30,652 bases of DNA. Origin: a virus (taxonomy: Duplodnaviria; Heunggongvirae; Uroviricota; Caudoviricetes). Position 1 is the first letter of the stretch. Each line of letters starts with the position of its first letter. The position numbers were made by a program, and so were the translations under genes. Positions 1 through 29,781 of the stretch are shown piece after piece. The notes beneath the pieces are model-generated. The model did no database searches and was not told the origin of the DNA. It was given only the letters and a program-made list of their open reading frames with translations. The DNA lies in the IMG/VR virus record IMGVR_UViG_3300045988_047713, positions 1 to 30,652 of that record, one strand, 5' to 3'.

Positions 1-399
1 ACCGTATTTATAATCCCATACGTAAAGCGTATCAGTATTAAAGTCATACCAGCGATAATCACAGGTTCCGTACTGACCGGGCAACAACCAGTCAATGTGA
101 ATGCGAACTTCTGAAAACAGCGGATCAAGTTTCGCACCAACTGAAAGAACATCTGCTATAAAGTCATCCGCGTAAATGTGCATGTCTTCAGTAACCTGAA
201 CACCGTTAGGAGCAAGACACGGCATTAATGGCGGTTTACCTTTAATCTTCTGTTCTAACACCCAGTGCCCGGCTGTACCTTCTTCAGCACTGGGTGACGA
301 TGGTTCTACATAGTCAATCCGCTGTGACAGTTGAACGCTACCCGGACAAGCTAACCAACGTTTTGATCCACTGGCACTAAAGGTAGCGTGACTTGTCAT
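1..399 (-). CDS. PD-(D/E)xK nuclease, Cas4/RecB-like (DUF2800-like); N-terminal 133 codons only, gene runs off the window start
   Basis: Minus-strand frame from ATG at 399-397 stays open to position 1; N-terminus MTSHATFSASGSKRWLACPGS...EEGTAGHW...GTCDYRWYD resembles phage Cas4-like exonucleases; ATGA overlap with upstream gene stop. Not in ORF track (truncated). Confidence 0.5.
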   Translation of the reverse strand, partial: MTSHATFSASGSKRWLACPGSVQLSQRIDYVEPSSPSAEEGTAGHWVLEQKIKGKPPLMPCLAPNGVQVTEDMHIYADDFIADVLSVGAKLDPLFSEVRIHIDWLLPGQYGTCDYRWYDFNTDTLYVWDYKYG

Positions 400-6581: not shown

Positions 6582-6624
6582 TGTAAAATAATTCTTGACG
6601 AATTACAGATGTGTGCGCTATAGT
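6582..6624 (+). promoter_or_regulatory. conserved sigma70-type promoter, copy 3 (plus strand)
   Basis: UP element GTGTAAAATAATTC, -35 TTGACG (6595-6600), 18-bp spacer, -10 TATAGT (6619-6624); drives the operon 6656-8887. Confidence 0.6.
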
Positions 6625-8893: not shown

Positions 8894-8922
8894 AGCGGGG
8901 CTAACTACCCCGCTATCTTTAT
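8894..8922. terminator. bidirectional rho-independent terminator
   Basis: Hairpin AGCGGGG-CTAACTA-CCCCGCT (8894-8914), A-run upstream and T-rich run downstream, so it works on both strands; lies between convergent genes. Confidence 0.75.
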
Positions 8923-9737
8923 TGACCCATCATATCTTTATACATCATCAAAACAACATCATCCGGCATATTGTCTACATCACAATGTGGGTTATGCGAT
9001 AACGCATACAGTCTGATTTTCTCCTTCAAATCGCTGACATCGACTACAGGTGGTTCCACTCGTGCTACAGGTGGTTCCACTCGTGCTACAGGTGGTTCCA
9101 CTCGTGCTACAGGTGGTTCCACTCGTGCTACAGGTGGTTCCACTCGTGCTACAGGTGGTTCCACTCGTGCTACAGGTGGTTCACAAACCATCACGTTAAA
9201 CGGTGTACCGGTGCCTTCGTATTTTTCAAGCAAATCGACCATTACGTTTACACATTCCGGGATCCAACCCCGGCGCAAACCATTCTGAATCCAACTGTCA
9301 GTAATTGTGTGTTCGTTTAAATTTCTGCGTAACACGTATCTGGTACATTCAAAATTACCGCACATCGCCTCAAACCGTGTCCACACGTCGTGACCGTGAA
9401 CAGCTTCCAGGATCTGTGAATCAACATATCTGACACGTTGCCAGTAGTTATTAGCAAAACGCCTGTGTGGTAATTTCTGACGCAGTTCGGTAACCGGTAT
9501 TGTGCGTTTAAGAACAATGTTTTCGTCAGAATGTTGTACTGACAAGGGTGACAGTGTGAAGTCAGTAATCTCTTCAAGAATAATACTGATCGTTTCAATT
9601 TTAGGATGAAATCTACCGCTCAACCATTGGTTGTAACGACCAACAGTTACCTTAACACCTCGACGATTAAGGTATTCAACAGCATTTTGCACCCCGCCTT
9701 TTAAATCTATCAATTCGTCTAAAAGGTTCTTTTTCAT
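8919..9737 (-). CDS. hypothetical protein with N-terminal HTH-like segment and 7 tandem EPPVARV heptads
   Basis: 272 aa from ATG 9737 (AAGGTG RBS 7 nt upstream; the track start at 9773 is 12 codons further); internal perfect 21-bp nucleotide repeats; sits directly beside the operator array. Confidence 0.6.
   Translation of the reverse strand: MKKNLLDELIDLKGGVQNAVEYLNRRGVKVTVGRYNQWLSGRFHPKIETISIILEEITDFTLSPLSVQHSDENIVLKRTIPVTELRQKLPHRRFANNYWQRVRYVDSQILEAVHGHDVWTRFEAMCGNFECTRYVLRRNLNEHTITDSWIQNGLRRGWIPECVNVMVDLLEKYEGTGTPFNVMVCEPPVARVEPPVARVEPPVARVEPPVARVEPPVARVEPPVARVEPPVVDVSDLKEKIRLYALSHNPHCDVDNMPDDVVLMMYKDMMGQ
9044..9190. repeat. perfect tandem repeat, 21-bp unit CTACAGGTGGTTCCACTCGTG, about 6.7 copies, in-frame within a CDS
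   Basis: Read directly: identical units from 9044 to about 9184; encodes the EPPVARV heptads on the minus strand. Confidence 0.9.
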
Positions 9738-9780
9738 TATCACACCTTCTTTATTTAACCACGGATAAATCATAACTCGC

Positions 9781-9955
9781 GTTAGCAGCTAGTGCAAGAT
9801 GTGCTTTATATGTTAGTGCACTTACACCTAATACATATTGTGCTTTAACGGTTAGTGCAAGATGCACGTTGTGCATTAGCTGTTAGTGCACGTTGTGTAT
9901 CTATGTTGGTACAGTTAGTGCACGTTGTGTATTATATAGTGCACGTTATGCATTA
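9781..9955. promoter_or_regulatory. array of 5-7 palindromic operator/iteron-like sites (core TAGTGCACGTTGTGCATTA)
   Basis: Copies near 9790, 9812, 9861, 9885, 9917, 9938; each contains an inverted repeat TGCAC-N3-GTGCA; spacing about 25-35 bp. Confidence 0.6.
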
Positions 9956-9967
9956 AAGTTATACTTA

Positions 9968-10085
9968 ACATAGATTGCATCATGTTTATTTTTTAACCAA
10001 CCTTTCTCTATCTTATTCTTTTTATTACCTTTTTATAGATAACATAGAAAACATAGATAAATAGAAGAAGTAGTATAGAAAGATA
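9968..10085. repeat. AT-rich intergenic element, copy A of a ~105-110-bp duplicated sequence
   Basis: CATGTTTATTTTTTAACCAACCTTTCTCTATCTTATTCTTTTTATTACCTTTTTATAGA...ACATAGATAAATAGAAG is about 90 percent identical to 29201-29310. Confidence 0.8.
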
Positions 10086-10225
10086 GAGATAGTACATATA
10101 GTGTATTAGCTGTAAATAGAGCTAAAATAAAAGTCTGGGAGATACCTATTGTAATCTATGTTTTTATGCAAGTCTTTGAAATCATTGTGATTATTGGCTA
10201 CGTATTTATGTATGTGGTCGAAAAT

Positions 10226-10243
10226 TAGTGCATGTTGTGCATT
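10226..10243. promoter_or_regulatory. isolated operator copy (TTAGTGCATGTTGTGCATTA)
   Basis: Same palindromic core as the 9781-9955 array, about 100 bp upstream of TerS. Confidence 0.45.
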
Positions 10244-10348
10244 AACTGTAAACTTAATACTAACATTGTATTAGCTGTAAAACAGGGCGTGTAGACAACC
10301 CGTGGGTATCTGTGGGAAACTAATTTAAAATTTATGGGAGACAAATTT

Positions 10349-13080: not shown

Positions 13081-13124
13081 AGTCTATCTGATGATGTGTA
13101 AACCGTCAAGAATTATTTTAAATT
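13081..13124 (-). promoter_or_regulatory. conserved sigma70-type promoter, copy 4 (minus strand)
   Basis: -35 TTGACG (13109-13104), 17-bp spacer, -10 TAGACT (13086-13081), UP element TAAAATAATTC; drives the rdgC operon. Confidence 0.55.
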
Positions 13125-13299
13125 GTCCGTCACTGTCTGCAGCATAGCAAATGCCGTGACTGTATATTGTCGCAGTTCGTGTAATGCGTTGATAGTCTGA
13201 GCATTGGTTACGAACACGCAGGTCATACCCGGACTGTATAATCAGCCAGGTTGCAATGATGGCGAGTAATTTTAAAACGTATCTGAACATGTTCCACAC
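13084..13299 (-). CDS. small hydrophobic protein (71 aa), possible membrane/secreted
   Basis: AGGAG RBS upstream of ATG 13299; N-terminal hydrophobic LKLLAIIATWLIIQS. Confidence 0.5.
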   Translation of the reverse strand: MWNMFRYVLKLLAIIATWLIIQSGYDLRVRNQCSDYQRITRTATIYSHGICYAADSDGQFKIILDGLHIIR

Positions 13300-14984: not shown

Positions 14985-15214
14985 ACCTGTAACCCTCTTG
15001 TTTTTTGTTTAGTGACAAGATATCTCTTCAACCCGTCGCAACTAATTTCACAATCCCCGCAGGAACCACCATCCAACCAGATGATGCATAGTGTGTGATT
15101 TCGTGGGGTGAGTTACGCTTTATACTCACCGTAGCGCCTGACAATCAGCGGTATCTTCAGCCGGACAATTCCGGGTTACTACATACTTGGTCAGGTATCT
15201 TGTCTATGACAACA

Positions 15215-15258
15215 ACTATACAGATACATGAGCAATCTGTCAAGAATTATTTTAAACC
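15215..15258 (-). promoter_or_regulatory. conserved sigma70-type promoter, copy 5 (minus strand)
   Basis: -35 TTGACA (15243-15238), 17-bp spacer, -10 TATAGT (15220-15215), UP element; about 220-nt leader to ATG 14984. Confidence 0.55.
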
Positions 15259-15319
15259 TCTGTTACCACCTGTCACCCGTGGTAAACTGTACAGAACAGT
15301 TACAAACGGACCGATAATC

Positions 15320-17083
15320 ATGAATAAGTTTACTGGAAATATTCATAATTACCCGCGTTGGCGGGATGCCTACGCAAATGACGAACGTATCTGGCGAAAA
15401 GGTCAGCCACGACCGGATTATAAACAGTGTTACATTGACCGCATTAACCTGTTAAATCGTATGCGCACGGATCGGGCAATTGTCCCGGTGCTGAAAAAGT
15501 ATTACGAAACAAACCCGGTAGCGTTTATCCTCGACTGGGCGTTTACTTACGACCCGCGTAACGTCGGTACTGAGTACACGCCTAACATGCCTTTCTGCCT
15601 TTTCGAACGTCAGATCGACATGGTTCAGTTTGTTTATGAAGCGCTTGAAGACAAAGAGAAAGGACTTTGGGAAAAATCGCGAGACTATGGCGCGACCTGG
15701 GTAGCCTGTGGTTTGTCCGTATGGGCGTGGCTGTATCGTCCTGGTTCTTCAGTTGGCTGGGGATCACGTAAAGAACAGCTTGTTGATAAACTGGGCGACC
15801 CGGATAGTATTTTTGAAAAGATTCGCCAGATTATCCGCGCATTACCACCGGAATTACGCCCGGTCGGTCTGCGTGAAAAAGACCATCTGGTTTACATGAA
15901 ATGTATCAACCCAGAAAACGGTGCAACAATTACTGGTGAAGCTGGCGATAACATCGGTCGTGGTGGTCGTAAATCTGTCTATTTTCTCGACGAGGCAGCA
16001 CACGTAGATCGTCCTGAACTGATCGAAGCGTCGTTGTCAGCTAACACCAACGTTCGTATCGACATCAGTTCAGTTAACGGTGTTGGTAACGTTTTTTATC
16101 GTAATCGTAAAGCTGGTCTGGAATGGGAACCAGGTAAGAAATTACCCCGTGGTAAATTGCGTGTCATGGTTCTGGACTGGCGTGATCACCCGGCTAAAGA
16201 TGACGAATGGTATAAGCGAGAAAAACAATCGTTCGCTGAAAAAGGTTTACAGCATATTTTCGCACAGGAAGTTGACCGCGATTATGCCGCTGCTGTTCAG
16301 GGCGTGTTGATTAAAGCTGAATGGGTACGCGCTGCTTTTGACGCGTTCCGTGACACAGAATGGCGCAAAGCTAACGGACTACTTACACCAACAGGTCAGC
16401 GTATCGCCGGACAGGATGCCGCAGACGGTGGTGAAGACGCAAGCGCACTGGTAATTGCTCACGGTGTATTCCTGACACATCTGCAACTTGACCACAGGGG
16501 CGCTGAACTGGCTGCACCAGGAATGTTGACGATGGCTAATATGCTGGGTGTTGATGAATACTGGTACGAAGTTAACGGTGTTGGTACAGGCGTTAAAGTA
16601 GCGGCAAATGACCGGAAAGATACTCTACGCTTCCGTGTGCGCCCGTGGTTACCGAACGGAAAAGTGGTGGATCCAGGTGGTGATATTATCGGTGGTACGA
16701 AACCTGGCGATAAAGACCGTAAATCAAACAAAGATTATTTCTCAAATTATAAAGCACAGGCATCGTGGGCGTTACGCCTGCGATGTCAGCGAATTTATAA
16801 ATGGTATGTGGAAGGTCAACCACAGGATCCAGACGAAATTATTCTGATTGATCCATCACTGGAAAATGCACAACGGTTAGAGGCTGAGTTAAGTCAGCCA
16901 ACATATACCAGTAACGGTGCCGGGAAGATTGTGATCGACAAAAAACCAAATGGAAGTAAGTCGCCAAACTTTTTCGATGCTGCGGTTATTGCACTATCAC
17001 CAAAACGCACTGAATTTGTCGAAGAACCATTTACTGGTGGTGTGAATCCTGTTGGTACGCCTGATTACGGTGACATTTTTTAA
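15320..17083 (+). CDS. terminase large subunit (TerL)
   Basis: 587 aa from ATG 15320; ERQIDMV...GLWEKSRDYGATWVACGLSVWAWLY (Q-motif plus deviant Walker A), Walker B VYFLDEAAH, nuclease-domain acidic cluster GQDAADGGEDASALVIAHG. The in-frame extension to 15095 is rejected because it would encode across promoter copy 5. Confidence 0.8.
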   Translation: MNKFTGNIHNYPRWRDAYANDERIWRKGQPRPDYKQCYIDRINLLNRMRTDRAIVPVLKKYYETNPVAFILDWAFTYDPRNVGTEYTPNMPFCLFERQIDMVQFVYEALEDKEKGLWEKSRDYGATWVACGLSVWAWLYRPGSSVGWGSRKEQLVDKLGDPDSIFEKIRQIIRALPPELRPVGLREKDHLVYMKCINPENGATITGEAGDNIGRGGRKSVYFLDEAAHVDRPELIEASLSANTNVRIDISSVNGVGNVFYRNRKAGLEWEPGKKLPRGKLRVMVLDWRDHPAKDDEWYKREKQSFAEKGLQHIFAQEVDRDYAAAVQGVLIKAEWVRAAFDAFRDTEWRKANGLLTPTGQRIAGQDAADGGEDASALVIAHGVFLTHLQLDHRGAELAAPGMLTMANMLGVDEYWYEVNGVGTGVKVAANDRKDTLRFRVRPWLPNGKVVDPGGDIIGGTKPGDKDRKSNKDYFSNYKAQASWALRLRCQRIYKWYVEGQPQDPDEIILIDPSLENAQRLEAELSQPTYTSNGAGKIVIDKKPNGSKSPNFFDAAVIALSPKRTEFVEEPFTGGVNPVGTPDYGDIF

Positions 17084-17090
17084 ACAGTGT

Positions 17091-17120
17091 GGCGGGATTA
17101 TTCCCGTCATTTTCTTTTTT
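17091..17120 (+). terminator. rho-independent terminator after TerL
   Basis: Stem GGCGGGA / TCCCGTC (one G-U pair), 4-nt loop, followed by ATTTTCTTTTTT; the T-run doubles as the UP element of promoter copy 6. Confidence 0.5.
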
Positions 17121-17156
17121 AATTCTTGACAAATTACATTATAAATGTTTGTAAAT
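17112..17156 (+). promoter_or_regulatory. conserved sigma70-type promoter, copy 6 (plus strand), -10 ambiguous
   Basis: -35 TTGACA (17126-17131) with conserved flanking AATTC...AATTAC; candidate -10 TTGTAA/TGTAAA at 17149-17155. Confidence 0.45.
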
Positions 17157-19293: not shown

Positions 19294-19301
19294 TCGACTT
19301 T

Positions 19302-19327
19302 GCCCCGGAACTGTCCGGGGCTTTTTT
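19302..19327 (+). terminator. rho-independent terminator
   Basis: GCCCCGG-AACTGT-CCGGGGC followed by TTTTTT. Confidence 0.75.
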
Positions 19328-19602
19328 CAACGTCTGAAAGATGAAAGAACAGCGAGGCTAACAGAACCTAAACCGAATATGACGGCGTATGTTAACTGAT
19401 GTTGAAGTTTCACAAAACCGTAATAATCGCTTTGTAATTCCACGATATCAAAAGCAATTGAAAAACTGGTTACCAGCAACATGATTGAAAGAACACGAAT
19501 CAGAGCAACTGCTAATCCTATCACCCCTTGTTCTTTTTTCTCAGTTGTAATAACGACAACAATCATTAACAGAAGTGAAAAAGCAATGTACATGTATTCC
19601 AT
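19327..19602 (-). CDS. membrane protein (91 aa, about 3 TM helices)
   Basis: Hydrophobic segments throughout; ORF track. Confidence 0.55.
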   Translation of the reverse strand: MEYMYIAFSLLLMIVVVITTEKKEQGVIGLAVALIRVLSIMLLVTSFSIAFDIVELQSDYYGFVKLQHQLTYAVIFGLGSVSLAVLSSFRR

Positions 19603-20316: not shown

Positions 20317-20600
20317 GATTGTTCTCCGATTGCTTTAGCAACAATAGTTTTCATTTTCATATAAATTTCATATTCAGAATTACGTTTTGCGATAGCTAAT
20401 TGTAAAACTTTTAACAGTTCCGGCGCTGCAGCGATTAATCGTGCGTTTGCTAATTGTTCTGTTTTGTCACCGTTATAAGTTGGTGTATATGCAATCTCAA
20501 CACCTGAGTCTGAAACAATATCGGGAGTATTATCATCATTGATAATAACTTTCCACGAACCTTTTGTACCTTTAAACTGGTTCATAATTATTACCCTCAT
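20313..20600 (-). CDS. hypothetical protein (95 aa)
   Basis: ORF track; coupled. Confidence 0.45.
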   Translation of the reverse strand: MRVIIMNQFKGTKGSWKVIINDDNTPDIVSDSGVEIAYTPTYNGDKTEQLANARLIAAAPELLKVLQLAIAKRNSEYEIYMKMKTIVAKAIGEQS

Positions 20601-20893
20601 TTATAATAAAGTTCTTTTTCAAGCCTGATGATTTCTTCTTTCAACCACGAAAGTTCTAAAAGAGTTTGTTTACCCCACGCCATCACTTCGGCATACCGTT
20701 TACACTCATAACTGTGTTTTTTACGCTCGTAACAGGTAAGCTGTCGTTGACAACGCGTGCTATTTAAAAGGTGAAACCTTATGTTTACACTAACGCGGTT
20801 TTCAATTAAATCATCATTTATACAATCGTTTACGTTGCGCCAGTCTTGTCGCATTTTAGCTAGTGCAACAAGTTTTTCAGCCCGTGTGGTCAT
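20597..20893 (-). CDS. hypothetical protein (98 aa)
   Basis: ORF track; coupled. Confidence 0.45.
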   Translation of the reverse strand: MTTRAEKLVALAKMRQDWRNVNDCINDDLIENRVSVNIRFHLLNSTRCQRQLTCYERKKHSYECKRYAEVMAWGKQTLLELSWLKEEIIRLEKELYYK

Positions 20894-21232: not shown

Positions 21233-21276
21233 AGCATAATCGCACGTTTGCAATCCGTCAAGAATTATTTTAACAC
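21233..21276 (-). promoter_or_regulatory. conserved sigma70-type promoter, copy 7 (minus strand)
   Basis: -35 TTGACG (21261-21256), 17-bp spacer, -10 TATGCT (21238-21233), UP element. Confidence 0.55.
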
Positions 21277-21295
21277 CGTGCAAAAAAACCATCAC

Positions 21296-21304
21296 TGATA
21301 TAAC
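21296..21304 (+). promoter_or_regulatory. candidate extended -10 promoter for the portal gene
   Basis: TG-A-TATAAC (TG 21296-21297, hexamer 21299-21304), about 40 nt upstream of ATG 21344; near-identical to TGATATAAT upstream of the MuF-like gene. Confidence 0.3.
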
Positions 21305-22705: not shown

Positions 22706-22733
22706 AAGGGACCGTTACTGGTCCCTTAATTTT
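22706..22733. terminator. bidirectional rho-independent terminator
   Basis: AAGGGACC-GTTACT-GGTCCCTT flanked by A-run upstream and T-run downstream; between convergent genes. Confidence 0.7.
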
Positions 22734-23455: not shown

Positions 23456-23499
23456 AGGTTACACGTCCTTGTGTAATCCGTCAAGAATTATTTTAAATT
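23456..23499 (-). promoter_or_regulatory. conserved sigma70-type promoter, copy 8 (minus strand)
   Basis: -35 TTGACG (23484-23479), 17-bp spacer, -10 TAACCT (23461-23456), UP element. Confidence 0.5.
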
Positions 23500-23736
23500 A
23501 TCGTAGACAGGCGGTAACCCCATTGCGGCCTGTACAGACCGTTTTTCGTATTCCTCCCGAAGTTTCTGAAGTCGTTCAATACCGATGTCACAACCACGCA
23601 TAATATCAGCGCACAGGTCGTTGTAGGTCGCTTCAGATTGCTTGCTGTGTGGGTAATCAACACAGGATGGATCTGTAATAATGACTTTCGGCAGATACGC
23701 GACAGTATCGCCCATTGCGTTTTTAAATATCGTCAT
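23488..23736 (-). CDS. hypothetical protein (82 aa)
   Basis: Internal ATG 23736 chosen; the track ORF start at 23847 would overlap the upstream gene by 110 nt. Confidence 0.45.
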   Translation of the reverse strand: MTIFKNAMGDTVAYLPKVIITDPSCVDYPHSKQSEATYNDLCADIMRGCDIGIERLQKLREEYEKRSVQAAMGLPPVYDNLK

Positions 23737-25223: not shown

Positions 25224-25268
25224 ATGTTAGTGTGATCGCTTGCAATGTGTCAAGAATTATTTTAAACT
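25224..25268 (-). promoter_or_regulatory. conserved sigma70-type promoter, copy 9 (minus strand); possible divergent partner for the gene at 25297
   Basis: -35 TTGACA (25253-25248), 18-bp spacer, -10 TAACAT (25229-25224). Plus strand: TTGCAA (25240-25245), 17 bp, TAAACT (25263-25268), about 30 nt upstream of ATG 25297. Confidence 0.5.
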
Positions 25269-25296
25269 TCTGTCAACGTTAACCAATGAGGAATAA

Positions 25297-26055
25297 ATGA
25301 TGTTTGAACATCCGTGGAACATACCTGCATATGATGCTGAAAGTGAAAAACAATCACTTGACTATCAAATGAAAACACAACAAGTAGACTGGAGTGAAGC
25401 GCCAGACTGGGCTACATGTGTTGTTCTTAATAAGACAACAAACACTTTTGCATGGTCTGATGGTTCAATGTACGCACCAATTTTAAGAAATCCGCCACAA
25501 ATTATGGAGAATGCTGATGACTTTGAAATCTTTGAAAAACGCCCTTGTGGTCCAGCAACACCTGTCAAAACAAAACTGTTAATGACACCGAAAGCCCGTG
25601 GTAATACTTACGAAGAATTCATTGCGACCGGGTGGAATGACGACCAGTTAGTCGAACATGGTTATGCTGTTCGTATTACAGACAAACGTTCCTGGTCACC
25701 AATGACCGTCGGAACTGAAACAATTACACCACCGTCAAACTGTCGGTGCACATTCACACCCGTTCAACAACCATCAACAGCGTCTGATTTACTGAAACAG
25801 GCTGAACAGCTACTGACAGAACGTGGTAAGCAGTATGACACGTCTAGTCAGGAACGTTCGTCAGCTAAAATAGTTGCTGCGTTTAACACAATTACCGGGC
25901 GCGATTTAACACCAGGTGAAGGATGGTTGTTCCTGATGTTGTTAAAAGCGGTTCGTTTCTATTCCAACACTGAAACACCACATCGTGACAGTCTGGAAGA
26001 CCTGATCAGCTATGCTGCATTACACGCAGAGGAATATCTTAACAATGAACGGTGA
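25297..26055 (+). CDS. hypothetical protein (252 aa)
   Basis: GAGGA RBS; no confidently recognised domain. Confidence 0.5.
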   Translation: MMFEHPWNIPAYDAESEKQSLDYQMKTQQVDWSEAPDWATCVVLNKTTNTFAWSDGSMYAPILRNPPQIMENADDFEIFEKRPCGPATPVKTKLLMTPKARGNTYEEFIATGWNDDQLVEHGYAVRITDKRSWSPMTVGTETITPPSNCRCTFTPVQQPSTASDLLKQAEQLLTERGKQYDTSSQERSSAKIVAAFNTITGRDLTPGEGWLFLMLLKAVRFYSNTETPHRDSLEDLISYAALHAEEYLNNER

Positions 26056-26227
26056 ACAAGCATTCGACCTTCTGGTTAAATACGACATTATTGTTATTCA
26101 CTGTGACCGTGAACAAATCGTTTTCACGGACGATCTTTGTTATGAAGAACCTTATGACGGTGATAAACGGTCTGCCACGATTCGGTTAATCGAACGTGTG
26201 GCACGTGACAGAGGGGAACTATTATAA
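26045..26227 (+). CDS. hypothetical protein (60 aa)
   Basis: ATG 26045 overlapping the upstream stop; the track ORF starts at an upstream in-frame codon. Confidence 0.4.
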   Translation: MNGEQAFDLLVKYDIIVIHCDREQIVFTDDLCYEEPYDGDKRSATIRLIERVARDRGELL

Positions 26228-26421
26228 TGGTTCAAACTATTTCTGAATTACTACCCACCGTTTATGGCAACGTGACAGAACTTGCCAGGCGGATTGGGTG
26301 TAACAAAGCGACAGTTTATAAATATATGGATGACACCAATGGTGAATTTCACGCGGTAGTGAATGGTAAGTTGATGGTCAGACCAGGTTTTAAAGGACGT
26401 TATACTCGTGACAAAAGATGA
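26227..26421 (+). CDS. small helix-turn-helix DNA-binding protein (64 aa)
   Basis: TELARRIGCNKATVYKYM resembles an HTH recognition helix pair. Confidence 0.5.
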   Translation: MVQTISELLPTVYGNVTELARRIGCNKATVYKYMDDTNGEFHAVVNGKLMVRPGFKGRYTRDKR

Positions 26422-26551
26422 AAAATTATTACGTGAACTTGAAATAGACTACGAACGAGCGCAAAAAGCGTTAAAGTTTCTGGAAGAACAGATCCGCGAA
26501 GTTAAGAACCGCATTCAGGGAACTGAAAAACGTAATCTTCCACGCCCGTAA
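26408..26551 (+). CDS. small coiled-coil-like peptide (47 aa), GTG start
   Basis: Open frame filling the gap before the terminator; LRELEIDYERAQKALKFLEEQIREVKNRI. Weak. Confidence 0.25.
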   Translation: MTKDEKLLRELEIDYERAQKALKFLEEQIREVKNRIQGTEKRNLPRP

Positions 26552-26555
26552 CACG

Positions 26556-26564
26556 TGATATAAT
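26556..26564 (+). promoter_or_regulatory. extended -10 promoter for the MuF-like gene
   Basis: TG-A-TATAAT (TG 26556-26557, TATAAT 26559-26564); predicted start falls inside the left arm of the adjacent terminator hairpin. Confidence 0.45.
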
Positions 26565-26566
26565 CG

Positions 26567-26594
26567 GCCTCAGTGTGTTAACTGAGGCTTTTTT
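26567..26594 (+). terminator. rho-independent terminator abutting the MuF-like start codon
   Basis: GCCTCAG-N8-CTGAGGC followed by TTTTTT, then ATG at 26595; the right arm contains the GAGG Shine-Dalgarno of the downstream gene. Confidence 0.6.
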
Positions 26595-27554
26595 ATGGCT
26601 ACTAAAGACCCATACCCGGATATTTCAGACAAGTATGACGCTCGCATTCGCGAAGCACTTGATGTTGTGTGGGAAAACGTGCGTCGTAGTGAGTCGTTAG
26701 CTAACCTGGAATACATCATTGAAACTCAGGGTATTACCGGGCTACTCCCCATTCTTGAAACACTCCCTGATGAACTTAGTGCACAGTTGCGCCCGGTTAT
26801 TGAAGACGCGATCGCCGAATCAGGTCGTGTAGTCGTTCAGGTTTTACCGAAAGCGGCTGTGACAGGTCCGGTTGTGTTCAGTCTGGTCACCCCACAGGTC
26901 AGTACATACATCAACAACTATGTCGGACAACTGATCCGTGAAGTCAGTGACGAAACAGTCAAAGCTGTTCAGATTGCTGTTAACCAGGGTGTGGTAACCG
27001 GACGAAATCCGCGTCAGATAGCCCGTGATTTTCGATCATCAATAGGGTTAACCACACGGCAAGAAATGACGGTTCAACGTCTGCGATCAGCACTGGAAAA
27101 AGGTGAAGCAGGTTATATGAACAGTCTGACCACTGTTACAGACAGTGCGAAGAACGCTGTAAGTGCCGGGAAACTATCACAGGCGAAGATTGACCAGATA
27201 ATCGAACAGACACGCTTGCGTTACGTAAAACAGCGTACAGAGACAATAGCGCGTACTGAATCACTTCGTGCTGTATCAGTTGGTCAGGATCAGGCAATAC
27301 GTCAGGGACAGATTACCGGGGCTGTTAGTAATGAATTGCTGAAGCGCTGGTTATATAGAAAGGATGGTCGGACACGTGATGCGCATATTTCCACGGGTGA
27401 AACGAACGGTTGGATACCAATGGACAGACCGTTTTCAACGCCGTTAGGACCACTTATGTTTCCTCGTGATCCTAACGGTAGTGCCGCTAACGTGATTAAT
27501 TGTCGTTGCAGGGTACAGTATAGTTTGCCGGAAGATATAGGTTCATTGGGTTAA
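26595..27554 (+). CDS. head morphogenesis protein, Mu F / SPP1 gp7 family
   Basis: 319 aa; C-terminal region ...NGWIPMDRPF...ANVINCRCRVQY matches the conserved end of MuF-like minor head proteins. Confidence 0.7.
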   Translation: MATKDPYPDISDKYDARIREALDVVWENVRRSESLANLEYIIETQGITGLLPILETLPDELSAQLRPVIEDAIAESGRVVVQVLPKAAVTGPVVFSLVTPQVSTYINNYVGQLIREVSDETVKAVQIAVNQGVVTGRNPRQIARDFRSSIGLTTRQEMTVQRLRSALEKGEAGYMNSLTTVTDSAKNAVSAGKLSQAKIDQIIEQTRLRYVKQRTETIARTESLRAVSVGQDQAIRQGQITGAVSNELLKRWLYRKDGRTRDAHISTGETNGWIPMDRPFSTPLGPLMFPRDPNGSAANVINCRCRVQYSLPEDIGSLG

Positions 27555-27781
27555 TCAGGTTCACGCCAGTCAAGAGGTCGCACATCACATAACAGACGAA
27601 CATTATCTTCAAATTTTATGTTTATCCTGTGATGTGCAGTATCATTTTCATAAACAGAAGGCCATATTTCATAACCCTGAACAGTTCGTGCCACCCACTT
27701 GTTAACGCTTGCCAGATGGATCAACACTTCACAACCAACTGGAGGAAGGTTTTTACCATCCCAAATCTGTTTCATTCCCAT
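27551..27781 (-). CDS. small protein with WDG..LPPVG domain (76 aa)
   Basis: QIWDGKNLPPVGCEV...W parallels QQWDGEGLPPVGTVCEW in the ORF at 23738-24202. Confidence 0.45.
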   Translation of the reverse strand: MGMKQIWDGKNLPPVGCEVLIHLASVNKWVARTVQGYEIWPSVYENDTAHHRINIKFEDNVRLLCDVRPLDWREPD

Positions 27782-27786
27782 AGCGG

Positions 27787-28062
27787 TTACTCCTGTTTTT
27801 CACCACAGAACGGACAATAAGACATTTTGATGTTGGTTCCCAGGCGTGTGAAGTTCTTCGCCAGTTCACCGTTTTTCTTTTTAGCACGGTATGCAAGACG
27901 ATATTTCAACATAACGTGAATTTTACCAGACGTCAGACCGAAACACTGATTATCCCAGCCCACTTTATCAAACAGGTTAGTGCTGACTTCCGAACCTACT
28001 GGTACTTTTTCCATCAGACGTTTTTGAAGTTCGTCACCAATTTTTTTCATACAATCACACAT
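27787..28062 (-). CDS. zinc-ribbon protein (91 aa)
   Basis: N-terminal CDC and C-terminal CPFCG; GAGGT RBS. Confidence 0.5.
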   Translation of the reverse strand: MCDCMKKIGDELQKRLMEKVPVGSEVSTNLFDKVGWDNQCFGLTSGKIHVMLKYRLAYRAKKKNGELAKNFTRLGTNIKMSYCPFCGEKQE

Positions 28063-28223
28063 TACGCGTACCTCGATAGTCGTCTTAATTTAACGATCAA
28101 CCTTGTGACTTTACTCCAGTCAGATTCAGTAAAATCGTCCACATCTTTAGCCCATAACTCATTGACATGTCGTGGGTTATATGGTTCTTTCTTGACAGGC
28201 TGTTTCCGTTTCTTTTTACCCAT
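28062..28223 (-). CDS. small basic protein (53 aa)
   Basis: ATG 28223; MGKKKRKQPVKK...; TAATG overlap with the downstream gene. Not in ORF track. Confidence 0.3.
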   Translation of the reverse strand: MGKKKRKQPVKKEPYNPRHVNELWAKDVDDFTESDWSKVTRLIVKLRRLSRYA

Positions 28224-28226
28224 AGG

Positions 28227-28610
28227 TTATTCCCCAGGGTGACGGATATTCAGATCCGGGAGAATTTGCATCGGGTTAAACGTAACACGATAACGATACT
28301 GATCTGTTGGTGAAGGGTCTATTTGTTCAATGAAATAAGTTACCTCCGTGGTTAACCCCATAAAGTGTTTCTTAACGTCGTTCGGACCAGTTTTACAGGT
28401 GATTTCGATCTCTTTGCTAGTGTTCTCACGGGCACAACGACCTTCGATAGACAAAAGATACTCACCGTTACGAACGTTATAGAAAACGATACGACGATTT
28501 ACTTCAAAGTTAGCTGCAGCGGTTGCAACGTTACGACTGGCAACATCAGCAGCATTATCACAGGCTGTCAAGGTTGTTGTCAGTAATGCACACAGGATCA
28601 GTTTCTTCAT
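28227..28610 (-). CDS. lipoprotein (127 aa)
   Basis: Signal peptide MKKLILCALLTTTLTAC with lipobox LTAC. Confidence 0.6.
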   Translation of the reverse strand: MKKLILCALLTTTLTACDNAADVASRNVATAAANFEVNRRIVFYNVRNGEYLLSIEGRCARENTSKEIEITCKTGPNDVKKHFMGLTTEVTYFIEQIDPSPTDQYRYRVTFNPMQILPDLNIRHPGE

Positions 28611-28625
28611 TTTAGTGTCTCGGAG

Positions 28626-29009
28626 TTATTTAATGATTAATGTTGGTTGTAAGTCTTCTTCGTACCACGTCCAACCAATACACGCACCATCTTCAGCATC
28701 AACATATGGTTTCAACCAATCGATAAATTGTTCAATCTCACCACCATAATTTTTAATATCACTACGACTAAAAACATATTGAGTATCGGTGAAATCAAAT
28801 TTAGGACAACTATTTATTACTTCCGGGTGATGATAAAAACTGCTACAACTACCAATAAAATTCCATCTGGGAAGACTGAAAAACTTATGTTGTGGTAGTT
28901 TCTCTGGTTCTTTTTCACCACAGAACATGTGTGCAATAATAGCTTTCACATCCACGGGTGCATCTACTTTAATCTGACACTTCAACACTAATTCGGTATA
29001 CATTCCCAT
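28626..29009 (-). CDS. hypothetical protein (127 aa)
   Basis: ATG 29009 with GAGGA RBS; the track start at 29084 lies inside promoter copy 10. Confidence 0.5.
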   Translation of the reverse strand: MGMYTELVLKCQIKVDAPVDVKAIIAHMFCGEKEPEKLPQHKFFSLPRWNFIGSCSSFYHHPEVINSCPKFDFTDTQYVFSRSDIKNYGGEIEQFIDWLKPYVDAEDGACIGWTWYEEDLQPTLIIK

Positions 29010-29055
29010 TTTCACATCCTCATTCACCAGCAACCCATTGTCGCTCCCTGTGATA

Positions 29056-29099
29056 AAGATATACCACAGTTTGCAATCCGTCAAGAATTATTTTAAAGA
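29056..29099 (-). promoter_or_regulatory. conserved sigma70-type promoter, copy 10 (minus strand)
   Basis: -35 TTGACG (29084-29079), 17-bp spacer, -10 TATCTT (29061-29056), UP element. Confidence 0.55.
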
Positions 29100-29101
29100 T
29101 A

Positions 29102-29188
29102 CAGCTAATACAGAACGTGTACTAACTGTACATGGTTTTACATAGGTTTCATGATTTTGAGTTGCAGCTAATACACGTTCTGTATTAG
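29102..29188. promoter_or_regulatory. two palindromic operator-like sites (CTAATACA-N5-TGTATTAG family)
   Basis: 29102-29128 (CAGCTAATACAGAACGTGTACTAA) and 29167-29188 (GCTAATACACGTTCTGTATTAG, perfect 8-bp arms); architecture related to the TAGTGCACGTTGTGCATTA sites at 9781-9955. Confidence 0.5.
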
Positions 29189-29200
29189 TAGATCATAAAT

Positions 29201-29310
29201 TCATAGATTTCGTCATGTTTATTTTTTAACCAACCCTTCTCTATCTTATTCTTTTTATTACCTTTTTATAGAAAACATAATAAACATAGATAAATAGAAG
29301 AGTAGTATAA
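29201..29310. repeat. AT-rich intergenic element, copy B of the duplicated sequence
   Basis: About 90 percent identical to 9968-10085 with two small indels. Confidence 0.8.
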
Positions 29311-29382: not shown

Positions 29383-29424
29383 CGTAAAATAATTCTTGAC
29401 GGATTACACCGACACAACTACCCT
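29383..29424 (+). promoter_or_regulatory. conserved sigma70-type promoter, copy 11 (plus strand)
   Basis: UP element, -35 TTGACG (29396-29401), 17-bp spacer, -10 TACCCT (29419-29424). Confidence 0.5.
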
Positions 29425-29454: not shown

Positions 29455-29781
29455 ATGGATCCGAACATCAGAGTTGCTACAGACGAATTCATTCGTCGCG
29501 CCCGTAAAATTCACGGTGATCGTTACGACTACTCATTCAGCATTGTTGAAGATAGTTCCAGCACAGTGGTTATTATTGACCGTGAAACTAACACAGTGTT
29601 TTTCCAGGTTGTCGCTGAACATCTGGACGGTGTTGAACCGGTAACGACTGCTGTTGAACCGATCAAGAATCTTTCTGAGATATTCGGTAACGTCGTAAAC
29701 AGCGTGTATCACCAGTGCATTTATTCATCTGAAATGTTAGAATTTAGTCATGTTGAAACAATACGAGGACAATCCCCGTGA
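29455..29781 (+). CDS. hypothetical protein with degenerate HGD.YDYS-type N-terminal domain (108 aa)
   Basis: ATG 29455 with AAGGG RBS; FIRRARKIHGDRYDYSFS resembles a motif recalled from the N-termini of some phage endonuclease-associated proteins, but the usual Cys/His ligands are absent. Confidence 0.45.
   Translation: MDPNIRVATDEFIRRARKIHGDRYDYSFSIVEDSSSTVVIIDRETNTVFFQVVAEHLDGVEPVTTAVEPIKNLSEIFGNVVNSVYHQCIYSSEMLEFSHVETIRGQSP

Follow-up and report, generated by a model that had tools for sequence, protein, structure and literature searches.

A compact element joining a -10 box, a terminator hairpin and a ribosome-binding site before the MuF-like head gene of 9NA-like phages: likely promoter-specific termination and translation

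In bacteriophage T4, early and middle read-through RNA sequesters the Shine-Dalgarno (SD) sequence and AUG of the genes e, soc, 49 and I-TevI, whereas a late promoter just upstream of their ribosome-binding site (RBS) starts within the region of the 5' strand and leaves the RNA open (PMC3014915); for gene e, the long and the late transcript differ about 100-fold in translation (PMC3014915). A comparable arrangement lies before the gene for a MuF-like head morphogenesis protein in a 9NA-like siphophage (Nonanavirus/Sashavirus), analyzed here over a stretch of 30,652 nucleotides (IMG/VR record IMGVR_UViG_3300045988_047713; hereafter the window). We consider it likely, though well short of certain, that the 39 nt at 26556-26594 form one regulatory cassette of the MuF gene, which makes both its termination and its translation promoter-specific. 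As in the T4 cases, a gene embedded in a longer transcription unit would be translated in a promoter-specific way, here on computational grounds only; the regulated gene is one of head morphogenesis rather than a lysis enzyme or a nuclease. T4 late promoters are gp55-dependent (TATAAATA), whereas the box before MuF is of the σ70 type with an extended -10 element, and so does not belong to the T4 late-promoter family. Unlike the T4 hairpins, that of the enteric 9NA-like phages is also an intrinsic terminator with a T-tract, ending at the AUG. The principle of control is already known from T4, which settled it decades ago, and the understanding of the mechanism is unchanged; the MuF cassette is a compact variant of it in a phage group for which we found no studies of regulation.

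The site reads cgTAAcacg-TGATATAAT-c-GGCCTCAGT-gtgtta-ACTGAGGCT-ttttt-ATG. The original prediction, made from the letters of the window, had described a terminator hairpin with six T ending at the MuF ATG, a GAGG RBS within its right arm, and the box TG-A-TATAAT just upstream. On re-reading the sequence, every coordinate of hairpin, box, GAGG, T6 and ATG is correct, the stem given there (26567-26588) being the Watson-Crick core, which a basal G·U pair extends to 26566-26589. The start codon is fixed by the N-terminus of the protein, since the pattern M-x-(x-K)-DPYP is kept in all relatives (aligned across clades). The box resembles σ70 extended -10 promoters in its TG at -15/-14, one base upstream of the hexamer, in its perfect TATAAT (6/6), and in having no recognisable -35 element: TCTTCC, found at 17-nt spacing, matches at 2/6 positions and is not usable, and a two-hexamer promoter scan did not pick up the box. 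At σ70 promoters, the -10 hexamer is followed by the start at a distance of 6-9 nt. As the stem already sets in 2 nt past the box (1 nt for the Watson-Crick core), the start would be forced into the 5' arm, with predicted starts 7-9 nt downstream falling on stem positions 6-8; A26572 or G26573, being purines, are the likely favored bases.

The 5' arm GGCCTCAGT (26566-26574) pairs with the 3' arm ACTGAGGCT (26581-26589) across the loop GTGTTA (26575-26580), forming nine pairs, five of them G-C, with a free energy of -15.3 to -15.9 kcal/mol. Among the 26-nt hairpins of the window's + strand only one is more stable, and among all positions on both strands it lies in the top 0.024%. GAGG is held wholly inside the 3' arm. 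The hairpin was found by a terminator scan, and it has the features of an intrinsic terminator, namely a GC-rich stem, a short loop, a U-rich tract directly 3' and a co-directional unit upstream; its stem starts 14 nt after the TAA of a 47-aa open reading frame (ORF), the last gene of the preceding operon. In its 9-bp stem, 6-nt loop and six U it is like a canonical terminator and resembles the window terminators at 17089, 19302 and 22706; unlike one, it holds the next SD in its stem, its U-tract abuts the AUG, its stem follows a -10 element by 2 nt, and relatives keep it without the U-tract.

Transcripts of the upstream operon would run into this hairpin, fold its nine base pairs and mostly terminate in the T6 just before the AUG; RNA that reads through would keep GAGG locked in the 3' arm and would be poorly translated. 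Host σ70 RNA polymerase, starting at the -35-less box and hence inside the 5' arm, would make an RNA lacking half of the stem, which would neither terminate nor hide the RBS, so that MuF would be made only from its own promoter. We infer the start site, termination in vivo, the block of translation and an upstream operon that is expressed earlier than MuF. The opening cost, that is the computed free energy to keep SD to AUG unpaired, is 14.4-14.8 kcal/mol in read-through RNA of the window and 13-21 kcal/mol in that of relatives, versus 4.5-5.7 kcal/mol in RNA that starts 7-10 nt past the -10 hexamer (about 7.3 in Vibrio phages of the K455 type). The genome-wide median is 5.8 kcal/mol in 9NA, where MuF comes 4th among 77 starts by sequestration, and 6.4 in K455, where it comes 1st among 67. 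These costs, together with a layout that is kept with three unrelated stems (see below), argue for the proposal that an internal start would relieve occlusion of the RBS.

Other roles for the hairpin fared less well. It is too short for an RNase III site, which needs a stem longer than 9 bp; translational coupling from the 47-aa ORF is unlikely, as its stop lies 14 nt before the stem; and Rfam 15, at the gathering threshold, gives no family match anywhere in the window. T4-type promoter-early stem-loops (PeSL), which Arbiol and colleagues are said to have described in 2010, are reportedly multi-copy, near-identical early-promoter cassettes implicated in recombination. The MuF element is like them in joining a promoter to a stem-loop as a compact unit at a module boundary of a mosaic phage genome. 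Unlike them, its hairpin pattern is single-copy in the window even with three mismatches allowed, by which a dispersed repeat (REP- or PeSL-like) was rejected; the multi-copy element here is a -35-containing cassette that has no stem-loop.

The same cassette with identical spacing occurs in Sasha, 9NA, Klebsiella phages of the e270.1 type, and several IMG/VR and metagenome contigs. Within the box, seven distinct enteric sequences all agree at TG, -12T, -11A, -9A, -8A and -7T; their stem is invariant at 15 of 18 positions, as against none of six in the loop and none of five in the spacer after the stem. The changes within the stem, C>T in the 5' arm (9NA) and A>G in the 3' arm (Klebsiella type), both give G·U pairs, and do so only in + strand RNA; the basal pair is G·U or A-U, and is unpaired (T/T) in Sasha. 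A stem that is kept around a variable loop, with wobble-compatible changes on one strand, suggests an element acting as RNA, as had been supposed. The T-tract is mostly T5-T7 or TTTTCT. In the Klebsiella-type phages and a metagenome sequence (L011), the upstream gene is a different one and similarity starts a few bases 5' of the box (aacctgTGATA...); the cassette thus travels with MuF. In the GenBank record of Sasha, a terminator is annotated that by its coordinates runs over the head-morphogenesis gene's RBS, an overlap on which the record does not remark.

Across 15 distinct sequences from two clades, TG, -12T, -11A, -9A and -7T are invariant, while -13, -10 and -8 vary; TG, -12T, -11A and -7T are the most informative positions of extended -10 promoters. 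The box is conserved down to 39% MuF identity, in the face of turnover in the intergenic flanks and in the loop. Enteric, Vibrio and L108 lineages alike place it 29-32 nt from the ATG. This selective conservation, and the presence of the same -35-less box before other virion and lysis units, point to a promoter, in agreement with the original prediction. The elements, their selective conservation, their dependence on context and the folding energies are direct results of the analysis.

More distant lineages keep the layout with other stems. In the enteric group (window, 9NA, Sasha, Klebsiella), a co-directional upstream gene is followed by TGnTA[T/C]AAT, the GCCTCAGT stem 2 nt past the box, and the T-tract; L011, likewise behind a co-directional gene, has TGATATAAT and the enteric stem GCCTCAGT, with GAATC instead of the T-tract. 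In the Vibrio phages K455, 141E35-1, 1.103.O, 268E42.1 and 13VV501A and in related contigs (39-41% MuF identity), again behind co-directional genes, the box is TG[c/a/t]TA[C/T]A[A/C]T and the hairpin GCCGCATTACC...GGAGTGCGGC starts 1 nt after it and ends 1 nt before the ATG; in Vibrio phage VpaJT_1, also with a co-directional upstream gene, they are TGcTATACT and GGCTGCATTCC...GGAGTGCAGCC. Enterobacter phage Mulvp2, co-directional as well, has TATAAT with CACTCTC...GGGGGTG abutting it. None of these Vibrio or Enterobacter hairpins is followed by a T-tract. The three unrelated stems (enteric, Vibrio, Mulvp2) thus all contain the SD and follow the box at a distance of 0-2 nt. The relative L108 (51% identity), co-directional and with the box TGcTATAAT, has no SD hairpin; a separate terminator with a T-tract precedes the box, and the 32-nt leader is open. 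Where the upstream gene is divergent, as in Proteus phage 2207-N35 (TGATAAACT or TGGTATAAC) and Morganella phage Henu15 (TGcTAAGAT), there is neither hairpin nor T-tract. A hairpin or terminator is therefore present exactly where upstream transcription heads toward MuF. The absence of the hairpin behind divergent genes supports the insulation from upstream transcription that had originally been proposed; termination is not part of the conserved core, since the Vibrio phages, Mulvp2 and L011 lack the T-tract. SD sequestration would be that core and termination an enteric addition.

Compensatory pairs were counted within clades only: enteric and Vibrio sequences align by box, 5' arm and SD, but their 3' arms stand in different registers, and cross-clade covariation by alignment was dropped for that reason. 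Relative to the other Vibrio phages, VpaJT_1 shows compensatory changes at two pairs, with A-U replaced by G-C and C-G by U-A; the Vibrio stem further contains a bulged A and an invariant U·G pair. Below about 39% identity, most MuF homologs lie directly behind an ORF of about 390 aa, presumably the portal gene, with overlapping stop and start and no cassette, and so add no information to the comparison.

The box is not confined to MuF. The original prediction had noted a near-identical one before the portal gene; this is TGATATAAC, which is kept in 9NA, and K455 has its own portal box (TGATATACT, 31 nt upstream). All 4/4 virion units of the window (TerL, portal, MuF and the homolog of 9NA gp37) have a box 30-39 nt upstream. 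In 9NA, six virion or lysis units have a -35-less TGnTAnnn[T/C] box whose end lies 30-44 nt upstream of their first gene: TerL (TGGTAAACT), portal (TGATATAAC), MuF (TGATATAAT), gp37 (TGATATTAT, 32 nt upstream; its homolog is the first gene of the head operon in the window), the major tail gene gp47 (TGTTAAACT) and gp56 (TGATATAAT). Such boxes are enriched in 9NA at 30-44 nt from starts (9 observed vs 2.3 expected, P=0.0015; 11 vs 3.1 with a looser pattern). In Vibrio phage K455, a box lies 24-34 nt upstream of portal, MuF, 0007, 0028, 0033, 0039 and 0042; it is cgTGATATACTa in all but MuF, which has TGcTACAAT, and this uniformity may leave room for a phage-specific factor. The TGn box appears to mark a promoter class of virion and lysis genes in the 9NA-like group, presumably a late one.

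Unlike ordinary extended -10 promoters, the box would thereby stand for a phage promoter class, set against a second class that carries a -35 and an UP-like element. This second class, AAAATAATTCTTGAC[GA]GATTACA, has 11 copies in the window, eight on the - strand and three on the +. Its cassettes, 25-33 nt long, combine a TTGAC -35 with an AT-rich, UP-like stretch and a spacer whose beginning is conserved, and they stand at the head of blocks of small accessory genes; GGATTACA, which is conserved after the -35, could serve as a regulator site. For TerL, the program-made ORF starts at GTG 15095; the true start is ATG 15320, as judged from where the TGGTAAACT box lies and from homology to 9NA gp11. 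The extension 15095-15320 overlaps two - strand promoters at 15215-15276.

Boxes joined to hairpins recur elsewhere in the group. At K455 gene 0007 (L183, about 2740-2790), the sequence TGATATACT-a-GCCCTaTC-ttaacc-GAcAGGGC-TTTTTATT-ATG is an independent combination of box, terminator hairpin and AUG, and this start ranks 3rd of 67 by sequestration. 3' of the major capsid gene, a box lies 1 nt before a terminator stem (TGgTAACAT in 9NA, TGgTATTAT in Bas82, TGaTATCAT in Sasha); there the GAGG of the next gene follows the T-tract, so that the SD is outside the hairpin. A promoter predicted to start inside the 5' arm of a terminator, and thus to escape it, occurs more than once in the group. Other strongly sequestered starts (9NA gp4, gp8 and gp50; K455 0043) have no abutting TGn box and were rejected as cases of the same design. 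Among these, the start of 9NA gp4 (1634, - strand) is the most sequestered of that genome, at 20.6 kcal/mol to open, with a long hairpin TTCCGCAC..CCCTG/CAGGG..GTGCGGAA that ends 1 nt before the ATG and may represent a different kind of translational control; K455 0043 (20539-20685), directly after the putative major tail gene, has its annotated GTG within the loop of a strong hairpin (AAGGAGCGCACC-gagt-GGTGCGCTTTT) that looks like a terminator, and is probably a mis-called ORF. In the window, strong hairpins at 22706-22727 and 19302-19321 stand at two convergent junctions of gene blocks; the former has T-runs on both strands, as a bidirectional terminator, and the latter is the most stable of the window (-17.3 kcal/mol).

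Several points weigh against the proposed cassette. A start only 5-6 nt past the box would leave a stem of 6-7 bp that costs 7-9 kcal/mol to open, and the GC-rich discriminator CGGCCT may weaken the promoter. Both Vibrio compensatory pairs come from one sequence, and 12 of 500 shuffles reach the observed value; in the enteric stem, the seven sequences show no double compensatory change. That the upstream operon is 'early' is an assumption; should termination be efficient, the translation block would be largely redundant in the enteric phages. Klebsiella relatives (L186, L187) have lost the box at the capsid terminator, so that the overlap is not obligatory. Motif counts in the window are at chance level, with the exact TGNTATAAT found once against 1.29 expected and TGATATAAT with at most one mismatch seven times against 9.8. 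Neither mapping of transcript ends (5' or 3') nor expression data for 9NA-like phages turned up in the searchable literature, the main genomics paper falling outside it, so that a prior description is possible; the 2014 genome announcement and the BASEL paper do not discuss transcription, and a free-text search for overlapping promoter, terminator and RBS returned nothing.

The counts bear most directly on the possibility that an ordinary terminator happens to lie beside a fortuitous -10-like sequence without function. Exact and near matches at chance frequency fit this, as do whole-region promoter and terminator scans that equal their shuffles, and folding of the 81-nt region reaches only z = -1.6. 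What exceeds chance is that 39 nt of an intergenic gap bring together box, hairpin, SD and ATG, and that relatives conserve this placement; given the counts, the case rests on the comparison with relatives. There, the box outlasts flanks and loop in relatives with 39% protein identity, the homology break with the upstream genes of Klebsiella phages and L011 falls just 5' of it, and at a fixed distance from the starts of virion genes boxes occur more often than expected, leaving coincidence hardly credible. A plain compaction, in which the hairpin serves the upstream operon as a terminator and nothing more, promoter and RBS are crowded into the 43-nt gap, and an SD in the GC-rich stem and a start in the 5' arm are by-products without a role in controlling translation, is unlikely, albeit the most serious of the alternatives. 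It is in line with the full set of terminator features, with the T-rich tract kept by most enteric relatives, and with the Sasha annotators having marked just terminator and RBS; efficient termination, moreover, would leave little read-through RNA to regulate. It does not explain why the Vibrio clade, Mulvp2 and L011 keep an SD hairpin abutting the box with no T-tract, and the terminator of L108, upstream of the box and followed by an open leader, shows that separate placement is possible; MuF is also among the most sequestered starts in two genomes.

The inverted repeat could instead act as DNA, binding a dimeric phage regulator on the start of the virion promoter and so controlling its timing, with the RNA hairpin secondary. 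The 9-N6-9 palindrome does overlap about -5 to +19 of the predicted promoter, small helix-turn-helix-like proteins such as NinH are encoded just upstream, and symmetric arm changes, as between VpaJT_1 and K455, are also expected of an operator that co-evolves with its protein. However, both in-stem enteric substitutions break the symmetry of the DNA while remaining wobble-compatible on the + strand, the Vibrio stem carries its invariant U·G and bulged A, and folding is more stable for RNA of the + strand than for the - strand (-15.9 vs -13.3 kcal/mol); sister promoters of the class have no such repeat, the palindrome being single-copy, and the position of the SD and the T-tract are features at the RNA level. 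We therefore hold an operator to be improbable. Very improbable, too, is an inactive TGATATAAT, with MuF expressed by regulated read-through from an upstream promoter, through λ Q-like antitermination or a hairpin-melting factor. The start site of the box comes from spacing, and nin-type genes, a terminator and morphogenesis genes loosely recall the λ arrangement nin-Q-PR'-tR'. But the box is kept at its informative positions and recurs before virion genes whose upstream genes are divergent, with no terminator; antitermination would not release the SD from the hairpin, and the Vibrio relatives have nothing to antiterminate. As for the λ Q module (PR'-tR') itself, no Q-like or other antiterminator family was found by Pfam and PHROGs in the four ORFs upstream, the only ones examined. 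The evidence thus continues to favor a cassette in which promoter, hairpin and RBS act together.

Table 1. Coordinates of the MuF cassette, its neighbors and related elements (window positions unless a genome is named).
Feature	Position	Strand	Basis or remarks
Extended -10 box TG-A-TATAAT (TGATATAAT)	26556-26564	+	sequence; key positions invariant in 15 sequences
RNA hairpin, 9-bp stem and 6-nt loop	26566-26589	+	folding, terminator scan, conservation
Predicted transcription start	26570-26573	+	from σ70 spacing rule
Shine-Dalgarno GAGG, 7 nt before ATG	26584-26587	+	sequence; folding
T6 tract, completes intrinsic terminator, ends at start codon	26589-26594	+	sequence; terminator scan
MuF-like head morphogenesis gene, 319 aa	26595-27554	+	Pfam PF04233 Phage_Mu_F, E 6e-11; PHROG head morphogenesis
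Upstream operon, four non-structural genes	25297-26551	+	ORF list, Pfam, PHROGs
Candidate upstream-operon promoter TTGCAA-17-TAAACT	25240-25268	+	read from sequence; weak inference
TerL box TGGTAAACT	15280-15288	+	31 nt before ATG 15320; identical arrangement at 9NA gp11
Portal box TGATATAAC	21296-21304	+	39 nt before portal ATG 21344; no hairpin; upstream gene divergent
Head-operon box TGTTAGAAT	29735-29743	+	34 nt before GTG 29778, homolog of 9NA gp37
AAAATAATTCTTGAC cassettes	1216-1248, 1279-1311, 13095-13127, 15229-15261, 21247-21279, 23470-23502, 25239-25271, 29070-29102	-	
AAAATAATTCTTGAC cassettes	6583-6607, 17114-17138, 29384-29408	+	
Capsid-gene box and terminator	9NA (L182) 19301-19365; Bas82 (L184) 200-263; Sasha (L185) 200-263		

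Around the locus, the Escherichia phages KarinMuster_Bas82 and AVIO78A show 96-97% identity; for the Salmonella phages 9NA and Sasha the figure is about 81%. The upstream operon, co-directional with MuF, encodes in order a DUF6378 protein, a 71-aa ORF, NinH and the 47-aa ORF, which ends with the TAA at 26549-26551; Pfam matches are limited to DUF6378 and NinH, the PHROG families are classed as 'other' or function not assigned, with none structural, and homologs are annotated in 9NA, Sasha and AVIO78A. Its candidate promoter scores 8/12 against the consensus, under the threshold of the promoter scan, is kept in 9NA, and sits within a repeated bidirectional promoter cassette. At its 3' end, MuF overlaps by 4 nt (27551-27554) a convergent - strand gene (27551-27781; PHROG, no assigned function), with no terminator between them, so that MuF transcripts would enter the block 27551-29084 in antisense; after MuF, Sasha has an annotated terminator and 9NA a 230-nt gap.

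Further repeats were seen in the window. A 100-bp AT-rich segment is duplicated with 94% identity 19 kb apart (9969-10068 and 29202-29301), one copy in the large non-coding gap 9774-10333, the other just upstream of the head operon. Each copy adjoins iteron-like repeats (GTTAGTGCACGTTGTGTAT and variants; 9793-9953, 10224-10281 and 29106-29185); 9NA and K455 also have an AT-rich 'ataaatagaaga' sequence upstream of the head operon, and the duplicated segment could be an origin, a pac-related or a regulatory region. At 9023-9211, seven tandem 21-nt units (CTACAGGTGGTTCCACTCGTG), four of them perfect, lie inside the - strand ORF 8919-9773, where translation would give a heptapeptide repeat within a protein of 284 aa.

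For the 9NA-like supergroup as a whole, these considerations permit a joint proposal, which we put forward as tentative and rather doubtful: a temporal program of two promoter classes for the host polymerase, with -35/UP-dependent cassettes for accessory blocks and -35-independent TGn boxes for virion and lysis genes, and with hairpins as a design rule. The switch between the two classes could be made by a phage factor, either through AsiA-like blocking of -35 recognition or by a direct reader of the box. If this is true, hairpins right after the box make termination and translation promoter-specific for late genes that lie behind co-directional accessory genes, and the design rule is general, having been rebuilt at least three times with unrelated stems. 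For annotation, a 'terminator' right before a gene can double as its promoter and RBS context. With its 39 nt, the cassette may be useful in synthetic biology, as a part that would shield a gene from transcription and translation coming from upstream yet allow its own expression. As a natural series in which the architecture is kept, the stem replaced and the terminator gained or lost, it offers a case for the evolution of overlapping signals; and for the 9NA-like phages (Nonanavirus and Sashavirus, with their Klebsiella, Proteus, Enterobacter and Vibrio relatives) it provides a testable map of two promoter classes.

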